Part shown: piece by piece, positions 3,270 through 51,532 of the stretch
How the letters are laid out: each line of letters begins with the position of its first letter
Numbering within the stretch: the stretch's first letter is position 1
NCBI GenBank assembly: GCA_019897865.1
Contig: GCA_019897865.1_4532.1
Length of the DNA stretch: 64,000 nucleotides
DNA from: a phage
Reading direction: 5' to 3' (one strand)
Notes under the pieces: model-generated
The model's database searches: none
Told to the model about the DNA's origin: nothing
The model's input: the letters and a program-made list of their open reading frames with translations, nothing else
Program-made: the position numbers and the translations under genes

Positions 3270-3701
3270 ATGCGTATGACAATCGATCTGAATGCAAAAG
3301 TTAAAGCTGCTGGTGCTCTGGGCGCTGGTGTTATTAAACACAAACAAGCGTTGGCATTTGCCATCCCACATATGATTGTTGAGGATCATCCTGAAGAGTT
3401 TGCTGTAAAAGTTGTTGAGAACAATGTCTCTGTTATTGAACATCTTCCAACTGGACGTTCTTACCGTGTTGTTTCTTCTAGAGGTTTCCGTTTCGATGTA
3501 AGCCCTTCTTTCACAAAAGGTGCTGGTCGTAGTAAAGTGGGTATTCTTTCTTACAAATATTATATCGATAAAGTTGCAGATGGTGTCGCATTCTGTCGTG
3601 TAAGTGAAGGTAAAGTAGATATCATCTTTAAAAATACCAAAAACATGGTTATTTCTGACGATGGGAAAGTTGACCTCACTATTGAGTTCGCTAACAACTA
3701 A
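3270..3701 (+). CDS. Hypothetical protein
   Basis: 143-aa ORF with strong promoter and RBS; no recognisable motif. Confidence 0.6.
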   Translation: MRMTIDLNAKVKAAGALGAGVIKHKQALAFAIPHMIVEDHPEEFAVKVVENNVSVIEHLPTGRSYRVVSSRGFRFDVSPSFTKGAGRSKVGILSYKYYIDKVADGVAFCRVSEGKVDIIFKNTKNMVISDDGKVDLTIEFANN

Positions 3702-3710
3702 GGAGGACTA

Positions 3711-4505
3711 TTGAGCAAGTTGAATACACTTGATCAATATTACACTAACCCCGCTTATGCGGGGTTCTTATGTGATAAGATCAAAGAAATTTTTGGAGAG
3801 GAAGCTAACTACGTAGAACCATCTGCGGGAGAAGGAGCTTTCTCTTCTTGTTTTAAAAACATAACTTCTTTTGATATTGACCCTAAGTTTGAAGATTGTA
3901 TTGAGGCAGATTTTTTAGCTCAATCTGTTGAGTCTGTTGGCAGTGTAACTGCTTTTGTCGGTAATCCTCCGTTTGGAAAAAATGCTAGTCTTGCCATTAA
4001 GTTCTTTAACCATTGTGCTGAAATGTTGGATAACGAAGGTGGTATTTGTTTTATCTTGCCTCGCACATTTCAAAAAATCTTTTTTGCACACAAACTAAAT
4101 CCCCACATGCATCTTCTTTACGAAGAAGAATGTCCAAAAGGATCTTTTATTCTTCATGGAGAACCTTGGGATGTTCCTTGTGTATTCCAGATATGGATTA
4201 AACGCAACGAGAAGCGTTCTCCCGTTGTTTTAGGAGAGAATCGACTGTTCGTATTAGGTAACAGTAAAGACTACGATATAGCCGTTAGGAGAGCGGGAGC
4301 AAGTGCAGGTAAAGTGTTATCAGAAGAAGATTCTTTATCTGAAGCATCTACCTATTTTTTAAAAGCCTTGACTTCTGATCTTAAAACGCGTATCATTGAG
4401 GCTTACCCGTTACTTAAAGCTGAAGCTAGTAAAACTGCGGGAGTAAGAAGTTTAAGTTTAAAAGAACTTCAGTGGGTTCTGGAGAACATTAGAAAGGAGG
4501 AATAG
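3711..4505 (+). CDS. DNA methyltransferase (N6-adenine/N4-cytosine class, orphan)
   Basis: 264 aa, TTG start; DQYYTNP near N-terminus, SAM-binding EPSAGEGAF (motif I), catalytic NPPF (motif IV). No adjacent restriction endonuclease seen. Confidence 0.7.
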   Translation: MSKLNTLDQYYTNPAYAGFLCDKIKEIFGEEANYVEPSAGEGAFSSCFKNITSFDIDPKFEDCIEADFLAQSVESVGSVTAFVGNPPFGKNASLAIKFFNHCAEMLDNEGGICFILPRTFQKIFFAHKLNPHMHLLYEEECPKGSFILHGEPWDVPCVFQIWIKRNEKRSPVVLGENRLFVLGNSKDYDIAVRRAGASAGKVLSEEDSLSEASTYFLKALTSDLKTRIIEAYPLLKAEASKTAGVRSLSLKELQWVLENIRKEE

Positions 4506-49234: not shown

Positions 49235-49260
49235 AAGCCTCCAATAAGGAGGCCAATAAA
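49235..49260 (-). terminator. Rho-independent terminator at the end of the tRNA array
   Basis: GCCTCC-TTATT-GGAGGC hairpin followed on the - strand by TTTTTGC. Confidence 0.55.
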
Positions 49261-49369
49261 TACTGTTAATTTGAAATGCTTTATTATGATTGTGCGTTAA
49301 GGAGTCGCACCCCTCCATCTTAGAAGGAACCAGGCAAGGTCTTCAAAGATACCACTGGCAAGCGATATT

Positions 49370-49448
49370 TGGAGGCGGGAATTGGATTTGAACCAATGAT
49401 CTCCAGCATATGAAACTGGCGAGGACGACCAAACTCCTCTATCCCGCT
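49370..49448 (-). tRNA. tRNA-Met (anticodon CAT); initiator/elongator/Ile-lysidine not resolved
   Basis: Hand-folded cloverleaf: T-arm ATTGG-TTCAAAT-CCAAT, anticodon loop TTCATAT, encoded CCA; A1-C72 mismatch at acceptor top. Confidence 0.6.
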
Positions 49449-49454
49449 ATTATG

Positions 49455-49526
49455 TATCCCGTGCTGGATTCGAACCAGCGTCACAAGAAATTGTGGATCT
49501 CTTATCCTGTAAGTCTAACGGGAAAC
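49455..49526 (-). ncRNA. tRNA-like element (canonical T-arm and acceptor, no canonical anticodon arm)
   Basis: T-arm GCTGG-TTCGAAT-CCAGC and near-complementary acceptor strands, but the central region forms CACAA-TTTC-TTGTG instead of a 5-bp/7-nt anticodon arm. Confidence 0.3.
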
Positions 49527-49600
49527 TGGTTGTTTCGACAAGAATCGAACTTGTGTCTCACGATTATCAGTCGTGGGTTCTACCATTGAACTACGAAACA
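49527..49600 (-). tRNA. tRNA-Ile (anticodon GAT)
   Basis: Perfect cloverleaf: acceptor TGTTTCG/CGAAACA, D GTTC/GAAC, anticodon stem CACGA/TCGTG with loop CTGATAA, T-arm ACAAG-TTCGATT-CTTGT, encoded CCA. Confidence 0.75.
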
Positions 49601-49606
49601 TTTAAT

Positions 49607-49683
49607 TGGTCGGAATTGCAGGATTCGAACCTGCGACCCTACGCTCCCAAAGCGTATGCTCTACCAAACTGAGCTAAATTCCG
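49607..49683 (-). tRNA. tRNA-Pro (anticodon TGG)
   Basis: Acceptor CGGAATT/AATTCCG, D GCTC/GAGC, anticodon stem TACGC/GCGTA with loop TTTGGGA, T-arm GCAGG-TTCGAAT-CCTGC, CCA. Confidence 0.75.
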
Positions 49684-49688
49684 TTATA

Positions 49689-49764
49689 TGGCTGGTCTGT
49701 CTGGATTTGAACCAAACCTACGACAGTCAAAGTGTCGTGTGCTACCGGACTACACTACAAACCA
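49689..49764 (-). tRNA. tRNA-Gln (anticodon TTG)
   Basis: Acceptor TGGTTTG/CAGACCA (U1-A72, G73), anticodon stem CGACA/TGTCG with loop CTTTGAC, T-arm TTTGG-TTCAAAT-CCAGA, CCA. Confidence 0.7.
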
Positions 49765-49862
49765 ATAAATCATTTAATGAAGGGCAACCAGAAGAGGTGT
49801 GAGAGAAGGAGAAAACCATGAGTAAAAGAGAAAGTTTTCTGGCAACCCTTTATTAAATAATT

Positions 49863-49936
49863 TGGAGCGTTCTACGAGGATCGAACTCGTGCCGCCGACT
49901 TGGAAGGACGGAATGCTACCGCTACACCAAGAACGC
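49863..49936 (-). tRNA. tRNA-Gly (anticodon TCC)
   Basis: Acceptor GCGTTCT/AGAACGC, anticodon loop CTTCCAA, T-arm ACGAG-TTCGATC-CTCGT, discriminator U, CCA; one mismatch in anticodon stem. Confidence 0.65.
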
Positions 49937-49947
49937 CCTACATCTTT

Positions 49948-49977
49948 ACTATACTACATTTTACTATTGATTGTCAA
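49948..49977 (-). promoter_or_regulatory. Promoter (CTATTGACAA family) for downstream tRNA block
   Basis: - strand CTATTGACAA with TTGACA at 49977..49972, about 18-bp spacer, TATAGT; ends about 12 nt before tRNA-Gly. Confidence 0.5.
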
Positions 49978-50250
49978 TAGTTTTATTGAGTGGGACAGTG
50001 ACGAGTATCCCATTGGGTGACTAGCCCTACGTTCGGTAAGCTAACTTAAAATAATACAAAACCAAAGTCAAATATTATTCTTCGTTGCTGTCGATGGGAG
50101 AGCCGCTTCTTCTTTTGCCCCATCCAACCCTACTCCGGTCAAGTTTCAGGTAACTCTTTTTGTGATCAACACAATACTAAGAACACTGTCTTTCGAACAG
50201 ACCTTGTGCACAGGATACGACGATCAATCACAGTGCCCTTAATGTTGTGT

Positions 50251-50325
50251 TGGTGCTCCCACTCTGAATCGAACAGAGATCCACGGATTACAAAACCGTT
50301 GTAATAGCCATTATACTATAGGAGC
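50251..50325 (-). tRNA. tRNA-Thr (anticodon TGT)
   Basis: Acceptor GCTCCTA/TGGGAGC, anticodon loop TTTGTAA, T-arm CTCTG-TTCGATT-CAGAG, A73, CCA; loop-closing pair mismatched. Confidence 0.6.
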
Positions 50326-50331
50326 AAAGCT

Positions 50332-50408
50332 GGGACTCGGCAGGATTCGATACCTGCAATTCCAGAAGCCTCTTGGCGACTGGGGGTTTACCTTAACTCT
50401 ACAAGTCC
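50332..50408 (-). ncRNA. tRNA-like element with extended central hairpin in place of the anticodon arm
   Basis: Good acceptor (GGACTTG/CGAGTCC) and T-arm-like GCAGG...CCTGC (8-nt loop), but middle forms CCAGTCGCC-AAGA-GGCTTCTGG; no CCA. Confidence 0.3.
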
Positions 50409-50415
50409 ATAATTC

Positions 50416-50501
50416 TGGCGATGAGTATAGGATTTGAACCTATATCGTTCTTTCGAACACGGATTAACAGTCCGCCGCTTAAACCATTCAGCCAACTCAT
50501 C
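50416..50501 (-). tRNA. Class II (long variable arm) tRNA with anticodon GTT (Asn codons)
   Basis: 86 nt: acceptor GATGAGT/ACTCATC, 3-bp D stem, anticodon stem GCGGA/TCCGT with loop CTGTTAA, variable arm GTTC-GAAA-GAAC, T-arm ATAGG-TTCAAAT-CCTAT, G73, CCA. Confidence 0.55.
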
Positions 50502-50507
50502 TTAATT

Positions 50508-50595
50508 TGGTGGTGAGTGATGGAGTCGAACCACCCGAATCGCAATGATAACAGATTTACAGTCTGCCCCGCTACCCCTACGGAATTAACTCACC
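50508..50595 (-). tRNA. tRNA-Tyr (anticodon GTA), class II
   Basis: 88 nt: acceptor GGTGAGT/ACTCACC, anticodon stem GCAGA/TCTGT with loop CTGTAAA, long variable region, T-arm GGTGG-TTCGACT-CCATC, A73, CCA. Confidence 0.65.
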
Positions 50596-50725
50596 TAAAT
50601 ACTAATATTTAAATTCTTTTTAAAATAGCCAGTGTTCACACCACTAACTATGATTTATCGGTAAGATGGTGGGGGCCATCTGCCGAAAGTTTACTCTATT
50701 AAAGTAAGCCATATTAAAAAGAACT

Positions 50726-50811
50726 TGGCGGTAGATGTAGGACTCGAACCTACACGCCGTTTCCGACTACAGTTTAGCAAACTGTCGTGGCTACCATTTC
50801 ACCAATCTACC
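50726..50811 (-). tRNA. tRNA-Ser (anticodon GCT), class II
   Basis: 86 nt: acceptor GGTAGAT/ATCTACC, anticodon stem ACAGT/ACTGT with loop TTGCTAA, variable arm GTCG-GAAA-CGGC, T-arm GTAGG-TTCGAGT-CCTAC, G73, CCA. Confidence 0.7.
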
Positions 50812-50816
50812 TAATC

Positions 50817-50907
50817 TGGCGGAAGGAGGGAGAGTCGAACTCCCAAGGCTCTTTCAAGCTCGGCGGTTTTCAAGACCGTTTTCGTCGCCACGTCGATTTG
50901 CCCTTCC
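50817..50907 (-). tRNA. tRNA-Ser (anticodon TGA), class II
   Basis: About 91 nt: acceptor GGAAGGG/TCCTTCC, anticodon loop CTTGAAA, variable arm GCTT-GAAA-GAGC, T-arm GGGAG-TTCGACT-CTCCC, G73, CCA. Confidence 0.65.
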
Positions 50908-50911
50908 ATAC

Positions 50912-50945
50912 TTATAATCTAACATAAAATAATGTTTGTTGTCAA
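50912..50945 (-). promoter_or_regulatory. Promoter (CTATTGACAA family) for the tRNA-Ser block
   Basis: - strand CTATTGACAA (TTGACA 50945..50940), 18-bp spacer ...AAACATTATTTTATGT, TAGATT, then tRNA-Ser about 9 nt downstream. Confidence 0.5.
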
Positions 50946-51141
50946 TAGTTTTTTAAAACATTTTACCATGAATGGTGACTCCACCAACCCCCGTTCTCCA
51001 CGAACGGTGCTCTTCGAGCATTTATGTCTTCTAATATAACCGTGGCCTTTGTTTATAATGTCTGACATATTTGCCTCATTCTCTGCCACCATGATCAGTA
51101 GTGGGTTCAAATCACTTGAGCTAATTCATGTTAAAATGTTC

Positions 51142-51216
51142 TGGTGTCTTTACAAGGAATCGAACCTTGACTAAGAGTTTAGAAGACTCCTGTGCTATCC
51201 ATTACACCATAAAGAC
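51142..51216 (-). tRNA. tRNA-Arg (anticodon TCT)
   Basis: Acceptor GTCTTTA/TAAAGAC, D GTGT/GCAC, anticodon stem GGAGT/ACTCT with loop CTTCTAA, T-arm CAAGG-TTCGATT-CCTTG, CCA. Confidence 0.7.
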
Positions 51217-51218
51217 TT

Positions 51219-51293
51219 TGGTGGCCCTGGCTGGTTTCGATCCAGCTACCTATCGGTTATGAGCCGACAGCTCTCCCATTGAGCTACAGGGCC
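51219..51293 (-). tRNA. tRNA-Met (anticodon CAT), elongator-type; unusual T-loop ATCGAAA
   Basis: Acceptor GGCCCTG/CAGGGCC, D GCTC/GAGC, anticodon stem GTCGG/CCGAT with loop CTCATAA, T-arm GCTGG-ATCGAAA-CCAGC, A73, CCA. Confidence 0.65.
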
Positions 51294-51497
51294 ATAAATG
51301 TGGTAACAGAGACGCTGACGATTGTAGAGAACCGCTACATTCTCTAAGACCAAGCCCAACTTTCAGCGTAAAAGTTCTTGAGCCGAGACTATTCCTTTTC
51401 CTCTTTGGTAGCTAACCTCTGAAGAAGTAGTCTCTAACACTACCGCAGTGCAAGCCCCTCTTAACAAAAGTCAACGACCCTGTTACCACACTTGATG

Positions 51498-51532
51498 AAC
51501 GTATCCTAACATATGAAGGATACGTTTGTCAA
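51498..51532 (-). repeat. 29-bp near-perfect palindrome abutting a third CTATTGACAA motif
   Basis: AACGTATCCT-aaCATATGa-AGGATACGTT (10-bp arms, 51498-51526) directly next to tgtcaa (51527-51532); about 200 nt upstream of tRNA-Met. Confidence 0.5.

Follow-up and report, generated by a model that had tools for sequence, protein, structure and literature searches.

Putative non-decoding tRNA mimics in the tRNA array of a phAPEC8-like coliphage, one of them a likely homolog of phage T5 RNA3

Small stable RNAs that are not transfer RNAs (tRNAs) have been known for decades from the tRNA clusters of phages, among them species 1 and 2 of T4 and the RNAs of T5, and we know of no function assigned to them. 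One of these, RNA3 of phage T5 (GenBank AY734508; gene rna3), is annotated as a misc_RNA of 73 nucleotides (nt) that begins with TTCTGTG, ends with CACAGAT-A-CCA, and lies directly 3' of tRNA-Asn; it is also annotated in phage BF23 (AJ604530). Here, we analyzed a 64,000-nt stretch of phage DNA (contig GCA_019897865.1_4532.1 of assembly GCA_019897865.1), here referred to as the window, which carries on its minus strand an array at positions 49370 to 51293 comprising 12 tRNAs and, as predicted by a consensus scan, three sigma-70-type promoters and one terminator. Two elements within this array, EL1 and EL2, are very probably conserved non-decoding tRNA mimics, with EL2 a homolog of RNA3:

50332 to 50408, minus strand: EL2, putative anticodon-less tRNA mimic of the T5 RNA3 family (alignment with T5 rna3; covariance model R1)
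49455 to 49524, minus strand: EL1, second putative anticodon-less tRNA mimic (homologs and compensatory changes)

A preliminary description of the array had reported irregular folds at these two places, and both were borne out: each element keeps a 7-base-pair (bp) acceptor stem and a T arm, and each has a central hairpin without an anticodon loop. EL2 consists of the acceptor stem GGACTTG/CGAGTCC (with a G1-C72 pair), the D arm UA-G(A)GUU-AAGGUA-AACC, the central hairpin CCAG..GCC-AAGA-GGC..CUGG, the variable loop AUU, and the T arm GCAGG-UAUCGAAU-CCUGC. EL1 has the acceptor stem UUCCCGU/ACGGGAU with a U1.U72 mismatch, an extended D arm around a conserved CUUACAGGAUAAGA, the central hairpin CACAA-UUUC-UUGUG, and the T arm GCUGG-UUCGAAU-CCAGC. 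CCA is encoded in neither element, in contrast to all 12 tRNAs of the window. ARAGORN and Rfam, the predictors proposed in the preliminary description, called neither element a standard tRNA at default and gathering thresholds, respectively. Both were missing from whole-window Rfam scans; scored individually against the Rfam tRNA model (RF00005; gathering score, 29), EL2 reached 20.3 bits and EL1, as an isolated 96-nt stretch, 28.1 bits. ARAGORN missed both at default settings and first accepted EL2 at 80% thresholds, as "Leu caa," and EL1 at 70% thresholds, as "tRNA-??? tt."

Using a 90-nt BLAST query, we found EL2 to be at least 95% identical in 88 phage records; among the 60 listed of these 88 phAPEC8-type GenBank records, none annotates an RNA at this position and one lists an overlapping hypothetical protein. 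A diverged copy fills the 79-nt gap from the long-arm tRNA-Asn to tRNA-Thr in the phi92-like phage PATM, another follows tRNA-Asn in the T5-like phage NBSal005, and in T5 the same stretch is the one annotated as RNA3. A metagenome scan added two further lineages, L109 and L115. The element is located directly 3' of tRNA-Asn(GUU) in the window (after a 7-nt gap), PATM, NBSal005, and T5, but not in L109 or L115. Across these five lineages, the acceptor stems are wholly unlike in sequence but keep their pairing (GGACTTG/CGAGTCC, TTCTGTG/CACAGAT, GTGCTTG/CAAGCAA, GGTCTAG/CTAGATC, and GTGGAGG/CCTCCGC), and the T stems likewise remain paired (GCAGG/CCTGC, GCTGA/TCAGC, GTAGG/CCTAC, GCGGG/CCCGC, and ACTGA/TCAGT). 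The central hairpin, 16 to 35 nt long, is distinct in each lineage, and its loop is CAACCA, AATTTT, a 23-nt insert, or, where the arm is extended, AAGA. Three parts are invariant in all family members: the D arm UA-G(A)GUU-loop-AACC, with zero variation in the four pairs of its stem; the variable loop, AUU (3 nt); and the T loop, YAUCRAAU (8 nt). In a gap-free alignment of the EL2 core, 94.8% of cells were paired, compared with 26 to 45% in slid controls; double-sided changes were present in 13 of 21 pairs, and the observed covariation score was reached by no shuffle. A covariance model (R1) built from 13 RNA3-family sequences gave scores of 66 to 90 bits for members (89 for the window EL2 and 82.3 for T5) and 28 bits for the best nonmember. 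By type of copy, the GenBank phage records comprise 352 with the T5 type, 39 with the phi92 type, and 88 with the phAPEC8 type.

EL2 and the RNA3 of T5 and BF23 have a common cloverleaf, in which the D arm reads UAGAGUUAAG..AAACC, the variable loop is AUU, and the T loop is 8 nt long; in T5, they also agree in position, immediately after tRNA-Asn(GUU). In contrast, T5 RNA3 differs entirely in the sequences of both the acceptor and T stems and of the central hairpin, all of which stay complementary. T5 RNA3 has an encoded ACCA and a U1.U72 mismatch, whereas the window EL2 lacks CCA and has a G1-C72 pair; the central arm measures 24 nt in EL2 and 18 nt in T5 RNA3. We next consider EL1, which R1 scored at 20 to 23 bits, the same as ordinary tRNAs, and which therefore does not belong to the RNA3 family. 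A shared origin of the two elements was considered, as inspection by eye shows similar D regions (TAGAC-TTA-C-AGG-A-TAA and TAGAG-TTA-AGG-TAA); given the R1 score, it is not claimed.

EL1 was found by BLAST in 76 records and, at 93 to 99% identity, is noticeably more variable than the surrounding array. Among these records are four Vequintavirinae (A7_1, A73, UPEC06, and LTH01), at 79 to 83% identity, and in the two of these examined it adjoins the 3' end of tRNA-Tyr. A homolog on the 47-kilobase (kb) IMG/VR contig 2700988963 follows tRNA-Arg(CCT) and ends in ACCA. The helices of EL1 vary in a compensatory manner: in the acceptor stem, C-G changes to U-A, and a wholly different stem, GGCCCGU/GCGGGCC, also occurs; the 2-bp outer D helix shows A-U to G-C, and the T stem shows G-C to A-U; and the central hairpin gains two C-G pairs in the Vequintavirinae and is replaced by GUACUU/AAGUAU in the metagenomic copy L006. 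In total, 95.7% of cells were paired, compared with 37 to 45% with slid partners, and six pairs had changed on both sides. In the EL1 and EL2 families alike, the 7-bp acceptor stem, the 5-bp T stem, and the central helix are supported by covariation. On these comparisons, we regard EL2 as a previously unannotated member of the RNA3 family and EL1 as a further family of the same kind, for which no annotation or description was found in the databases and literature searched. In pattern scans, genome contigs returned just one additional copy, on a Phapecoctavirus contig; a relaxed D-loop/T-arm pattern matched mostly ordinary tRNAs; and in IMG/VR a fixed-spacing EL1 pattern, whose spacing was wrong, gave zero matches. 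A stand-alone tRNA-like element was also observed on an unrelated 77-kb IMG/VR contig (L008, positions 3638 to 3711; the same as L035), with a 7-bp acceptor stem, a normal T arm, a D loop containing ACAGGATAAGA, and a 7-bp tetraloop hairpin replacing the anticodon arm; judged by these features, a distant relationship to EL1 is possible.

The lowered-threshold ARAGORN calls raise the question of whether EL1 and EL2 are real decoding tRNAs with odd anticodon loops, EL2 reading as Leu(CAA) and EL1, with a 6-nt loop and a 2-nt anticodon in the ARAGORN call, as a Val-type or frameshifting tRNA. For EL1, the Rfam alignment pairs AGAGA with UUUCU around a UCCACAA loop, and ARAGORN calls the L006 copy, which has an encoded ACCA end and an Rfam score of 24.6 bits, tRNA-Val(AAC). 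However, the AGAGA/UUUCU pairing, read from the sequences, is disrupted in three Phapecoctavirus copies (L001, L002, and L005) and in A7_1 and is therefore not the conserved fold of EL1. Among near-identical Phapecoctavirus genomes, the differences in EL1 cluster in the hairpin loop (TTTC, CTTA, TTTA, CTA, and GCTTA with a G.U pair), and over all homologs the loop is TTTC, CTTA, TTTA, CTA, TAT, TCT, or AAC, ranging from 3 to 5 nt with insertions and deletions included. Because it varies in both sequence and length, this loop carries no anticodon. The assignment of EL1 as tRNA-Val, whether with CAC from the Rfam alignment or with AAC as in L006, was accordingly rejected, as its fold is not retained in homologs. 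The EL2 loop is no better conserved, and U33 is absent. Neither an 8-nt T loop nor a mismatch at positions 1 and 72 is a feature of elongator tRNAs; such mismatches are present in T5 RNA3 (U.U), PATM (G.A), and EL1 (U.U or U.C). We infer that EL1 and EL2 cannot decode, and a decoding role is the least probable of the readings considered here, with only a very slight chance of being correct.

The two elements might instead be decaying tRNA pseudogenes without a selected function, their apparent conservation reflecting close kinship of the phages. Both fall just under tRNA thresholds, ARAGORN still calls the L006 copy of EL1 a tRNA, and EL1, at 93 to 97%, is less conserved than its neighbors. 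EL1 probably descends from a real tRNA, to judge from these sequences. Decay would not, however, explain compensatory double changes that keep helices paired between T5-like siphoviruses, phAPEC8-, phi92-, and rV5-like myoviruses, and metagenomic lineages, and the variation in EL1 sits in the hairpin loop rather than in the stems. Conservation of EL2 also exceeds that of the true tRNAs flanking it: in L005, L116, and L098, EL2 is 99 to 100% identical, whereas tRNA-Thr is only 73 to 81% identical and tRNA-Asn, in L098, 76%. We consider the pseudogene reading highly improbable.

Taken together, the comparisons speak only against a role that depends on the anticodon and, as far as sequence can tell, favor the view that the acceptor/T/D half of the molecules is constrained. 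Our explanation, to which we assign a probability of roughly 0.6, is that EL1 and EL2 are excised in the manner of tRNAs and play an accessory part as shape mimics that do not decode. Polycistronic transcripts from the three promoters would carry the 12 tRNAs interleaved with structured non-tRNA RNAs, co-transcription being suggested by the layout. The retained acceptor, T-arm, and elbow shape and the distance of 2 to 7 nt from neighboring tRNAs make excision by host tRNA-processing enzymes probable, with RNase P cutting at the 5' end and endo- and exonucleases, possibly followed by the CCA-adding enzyme, acting at the 3' end. The products would accumulate as small stable RNAs of about 70 to 77 nt, and maturation of this kind into stable RNAs is, in our judgment, likely. 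As shape mimics, EL1 and EL2 would then engage a tRNA-recognizing factor through the acceptor/T/D half. Over five lineages, the D arm and T loop of EL2 have kept their sequence and the central arm has not, and the reader of EL2 would therefore contact the elbow/acceptor half in a sequence-specific manner that includes the D arm and the 8-nt T loop. An accessory rather than essential role is consistent with phage T5, in which rna3 lies within an 8.2-kb segment that is deleted in the sequenced and viable st0 mutant. A separate part of this explanation, which we hold tentatively and at somewhat less than even odds, is that the RNAs work as shape mimics in trans and not solely in cis.

The main rival is a role in cis only, in which tRNA-shaped modules serve as processing punctuation for RNase P and RNases E and Z, cleavage frees the neighboring tRNAs or sets the 5' end of a downstream messenger RNA, and the excised RNA is a functionless by-product. 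This reading accommodates the position of the elements, always 1 to 7 nt past the CCA of a tRNA (Ile, Tyr, or Arg for EL1 and Asn for EL2), and the parts that are conserved, as the acceptor, T arm, and elbow are those used by RNase P. It is also compatible with L109, L115, and the T5-like phages, in which a ribosome-binding site and ATG follow the RNA3-like element at a distance of about 30 nt. On the other hand, the open reading frames (ORFs) that follow the element in the T5-like phages, L109, and L115 are mutually unrelated, EL2 in the window and in phi92-like phages sits between two tRNAs that would be processed anyway, and RNA3 was listed as a discrete RNA product by the annotators of T5. 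Furthermore, a D arm that is 100% invariant over five lineages whose other helices have been rewritten exceeds the needs of a mere shape signal. We regard a purely cis-acting role as unlikely, though it deserves more weight than the decoding and pseudogene readings.

Several points weigh against the explanation that the elements are excised and serve as shape mimics. The EL2 core alignment was extracted with motif anchors and a base-pairing filter, a procedure that favors structure. The evidence for the EL1 family comes from three to four independent lineages only, and EL1 of the window can also be folded with an anticodon arm of canonical size, in which case it scores 28.1 bits (gathering score, 29). 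RNase P processing of both elements is inferred from shape alone, and the stability of T5 RNA3 rests on its GenBank misc_RNA annotation in T5 and BF23. Finally, in L109 and L115 the RNA3-like element stands alone in front of an ORF with a ribosome-binding site, and the arrangement in T5 is similar, which fits a role in cis equally well.

If EL1 and EL2 do act as trans-acting shape mimics, one version is that RNA3/EL2 and EL1 are anti-defense or takeover RNAs, that is, anticodon-less tRNA decoys. The invariant D-arm/T-loop face would bind and neutralize a host immune nuclease directed at tRNAs, or a host factor that senses them, or else would fail to trigger it, and the elements would travel across unrelated phage families as a module with an unusual tRNA-Asn. 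Reading through the elbow and acceptor argues against decoys for enzymes that recognize the anticodon loop and, more weakly, against a pure cleavage signal. We offer the anti-defense version as speculation with a low probability of being correct; if true, it would give a function to a class of phage small stable RNAs that, to our knowledge, has long lacked an explanation. A search of the 64-kb window for antisense targets of the invariant EL2 and EL1 motifs returned only the elements themselves, at chance level, and nothing usable was found in the literature on the function of T5 RNA3 or of tRNA-like elements in rV5- and phAPEC8-type phages.

The partner in the proposed module, tRNA-Asn(GTT), has a 14-nt variable arm formed by a 3-bp stem and a GAAA loop, and this stem covaries among the window (TTC/GAA), PATM (AAC/GTT), and NBSal005 (GTC/GAC). 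T5 proper has an ordinary class I tRNA-Asn, and RNA3 nonetheless lies directly after it.

We also compared the elements with other small RNAs. The preliminary description had likened them to the small stable RNAs of T4, and this likeness holds in kind, as both are non-tRNA RNAs inside a phage tRNA cluster, but the relative of EL2 is RNA3 of T5 and BF23. T4 rnaC (species 1) and rnaD (species 2) are co-transcribed with tRNAs, and rnaC has a canonical T arm and paired termini; at 139 and 119 nt, respectively, they are far longer than EL1 and EL2. BLAST of rnaC and rnaD against the array returned only words of 9 to 11 nt, including a shared T-arm word of 11 nt, and R1 had no match in the T4 tRNA region. 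By sequence comparison, the T4 RNAs are thus classed as analogs of the elements and not homologs. Seven other RNAs of the T5 tRNA region (RNAI, RNAIII, RNAIV, RNA1, rna2, RNA2H, and RNAX) share the genomic setting, and several of them end in CCA or contain T arms. They parallel the leader and spacers B, C1, and D of the window (described below) as structured non-tRNA RNAs between tRNAs, and BLAST against the array again returned T-arm words only. Non-decoding tRNA mimics also exist elsewhere, namely, the pseudo-tRNA "tRNA-Other" of Bacillus cereus, the tRNA-like RNAs of murine gammaherpesvirus 68, and bacterial YrlA, which are tRNA shaped and undergo tRNA-like processing. They differ from EL1 and EL2 in architecture and host, and no homology is claimed; the YrlA model (RF02553) scored 22.8 bits in the window, against a gathering score of 69, over two adjacent true tRNAs.

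These comparisons indicate that the RNA3 family is not restricted to T5 and is present in about 480 GenBank phage genomes from three unrelated groups as well as in environmental lineages, while among the records listed RNA3 is annotated only in T5 and BF23. By the design rules of the family, the D arm and the 8-nt T loop do not vary, the acceptor and T stems covary, and the central arm is unrestricted. These rules show which face of the molecule is read and hence where to mutate it and what to pull down. Annotation pipelines could mark such elements in place of gaps, spurious ORFs, or pseudo-tRNAs.

The 2.3-kb array region is 99% identical to those of Escherichia phages nieznany, tuntematon, and anhysbys and at least 98% identical to those of many further Phapecoctavirus genomes; by sequence, the window is assigned to a phAPEC8-like coliphage (Phapecoctavirus, Stephanstirmvirinae). 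Small ORFs lie upstream of the array, and small ORFs followed by a large terminase and portal gene lie downstream. The 12 tRNAs, in the order of transcription, are as follows:

51219 to 51293, minus strand: tRNA(CAT) with T loop ATCGAAA and encoded CCA (ARAGORN; Rfam, 64.5 bits; Ile-CAT by tRNAscan-SE in MZ726793)
51142 to 51216, minus strand: tRNA-Arg(TCT) (ARAGORN; Rfam, 66.3 bits)
50817 to 50906, minus strand: tRNA-Ser(TGA), class II, with an irregular D arm (ARAGORN at 90% thresholds only; tRNAscan-SE in MZ726793)
50726 to 50811, minus strand: tRNA-Ser(GCT) (ARAGORN, Rfam)
50508 to 50595, minus strand: tRNA-Tyr(GTA), class II (Rfam, 39 bits; ARAGORN at 90% thresholds; GenBank annotation)
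50416 to 50501, minus strand: tRNA-Asn(GTT), discriminator G73, variable arm of 14 nt, 5' neighbor of EL2 (ARAGORN; Rfam, 62 bits)
50251 to 50325, minus strand: tRNA-Thr(TGT) (ARAGORN, Rfam)
49863 to 49936, minus strand: tRNA-Gly(TCC) (ARAGORN, Rfam)
49689 to 49764, minus strand: tRNA-Gln(TTG) (ARAGORN, Rfam)
49607 to 49683, minus strand: tRNA-Pro(TGG) (ARAGORN, Rfam)
49527 to 49600, minus strand: tRNA-Ile(GAT) (ARAGORN, Rfam)
49370 to 49448, minus strand: tRNA-Met(CAT), the last tRNA, with a D stem of 5 bp and the mismatch A1.C72 (ARAGORN; Rfam, 50.1 bits)

All 12 tRNAs, with the anticodons given in the preliminary description, were called by ARAGORN at 90% thresholds, and the same 12 are annotated in MZ726793 by tRNAscan-SE. 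At default settings, ARAGORN called 10 minus-strand tRNAs, with anticodons and coordinates as previously described. Rfam added tRNA-Tyr(GTA) at 50511 to 50595 with 39 bits (50508 to 50591 by ARAGORN at 90% thresholds) and detected tRNA-Ser(TGA) only with its tRNA-Sec model, at 37.4 bits, below the gathering score. ARAGORN reported no transfer-messenger RNA in the window. Packing at intervals of 3 to 7 nt, as first described, applies within subclusters, where the gaps are 2 to 7 nt, but not across the array, which is broken by four spacers of 98 to 314 nt, two of them bearing promoters.

The atypical T loop ATCGAAA noted earlier was located in tRNA(CAT) at 51219 to 51293, the first tRNA transcribed. 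This tRNA has an A at position 54 and is the best nonmember match of the RNA3 model, at 28 bits; copies with about 94 to 96% identity are found in some coliphages of 163 to 171 kb, e.g., mobillu, ESCO10, and F27. The other tRNA(CAT), at 49370 to 49448, is labeled a pseudo-tRNA in MT496970, and its phi92-like copy is also mismatched at positions 1 and 72. In some relatives (L002, positions 2414 to 2506; L005; and L121), tRNA-Gln and tRNA-Pro are separated by an additional 93 nt that have no counterpart in the window; this insertion was considered as a tRNA-like element and rejected, as it is not tRNA-like.

The predicted transcription signals and the untranslated ends of the array are as follows:

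51503 to 51532, minus strand: predicted promoter P1, ATAACTATTGACA ... TAGGAT, start of the first transcription unit (consensus scan, 10 of 12 matches plus a TG extension)
50916 to 50945, minus strand: predicted promoter P2, AAAACTATTGACA ... TAGATT (consensus scan)
49948 to 49977, minus strand: predicted promoter P3, AAAACTATTGACA ... TATAGT (consensus scan, 11 of 12 matches)
51294 to 51500, minus strand: 5' leader RNA of about 200 nt, from P1 to the first tRNA (complementary ends GTGGTAACAG...CTGTTACCAC, read from the sequence by eye)
49255 to 49369, minus strand: 3' trailer (87 to 98% conserved)
49236 to 49254, minus strand: predicted intrinsic terminator, GGCCTCCTTATTGGAGGCT followed by TTTTG, at the end of the array (consensus scan)

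The motif AAAACTATTGACA occurs upstream in all three array promoters and, with zero or one mismatch, nowhere else in the window. A terminator is likewise annotated at the homologous position in MZ726793. The 5' leader is 100% identical in three close relatives, and the trailer is 87 to 90% conserved in phi92-like phages, with the invariant block TTCCTTCT.AGATGGAGGGGTGCGACTCCTTAACGCACAA. The minus-strand spacer after tRNA-Arg (50962 to 51139) also has long-range complementary ends, AACATTTTAACATGAAT...ATTCATGGTAAAATGTT, recognized by eye, and the pairing of the ends suggests that the leader and this spacer could be two further excised structured RNAs.

Three other spacers contain structured RNAs:

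50168 to 50250, minus strand: C1, conserved structured RNA, the third element of the preliminary description (long outer stem around the core GATTGATCGTCGT.TCYTG..CAARGTCTGYTYGAAR)
50596 to 50725, minus strand: spacer B, three-hairpin RNA with a long A/U-rich closing stem (fold z-score, -4.2)
49765 to 49862, minus strand: spacer D, hairpin RNA whose closing stem covaries and whose pyrimidine-rich loop is invariant (fold z-score, -5.7)

C1 was originally described as a structured segment with a T-loop-like hairpin. The segment is indeed a real conserved structured RNA, but in the minimum-free-energy fold the ACAG of the supposed hairpin belongs to the 3' strand of the long outer stem. C1 is 98 to 100% conserved, compared with just 75 to 77% for the adjacent spacer. 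Coliphages Bas79 and Bas81 have diverged copies, as does Klebsiella phage ST16-OXA48phi5.2, where the copy is close to the tRNA genes. The core is common to all homologs, and the outer stem has been rewritten yet remains complementary. C1 had no match in Rfam, and from this pattern of conservation we take it to be a genuine RNA motif that is not tRNA-like. Copies are located at about 1195 to 1275 in L123 and about 690 to 770 in both L127 and L128; the Klebsiella phage bearing C1 also has an antiterminator Q and tRNA genes, and in Bas79 and Bas81, C1 overlaps annotated hypothetical ORFs on the opposite strand.

Homologs of spacer B, in most cases located upstream of tRNA-Tyr, are present in Vequintavirinae, in phi92-like phages, and in Phapecoctavirus; their differences include compensatory ones, for instance, GATGG/CCATC compared with AGTGG/CCACT. 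Spacer D is 99 to 100% conserved in diverged relatives, and in phi92-like phages its closing stem is resequenced but complementary around the invariant loop TTTCTCTTTT.CTCATGGTTTTCTCCTTC. The transcribed strand of this loop exposes an anti-Shine-Dalgarno-like CUCCUU, and the opposite strand reads GAAGGAG-N7-ATG, followed by a micro-ORF of 8 to 12 codons.

About 5 kb from the array, at 55909 to 57394 on the plus strand, a metallophosphoesterase (PF00149 above the cutoff and PF12850 just below it) is directly followed by an Rnl1-family RNA ligase (PF09511, 56 bits). Judged by these domain matches, the two could possibly form a tRNA repair pair.

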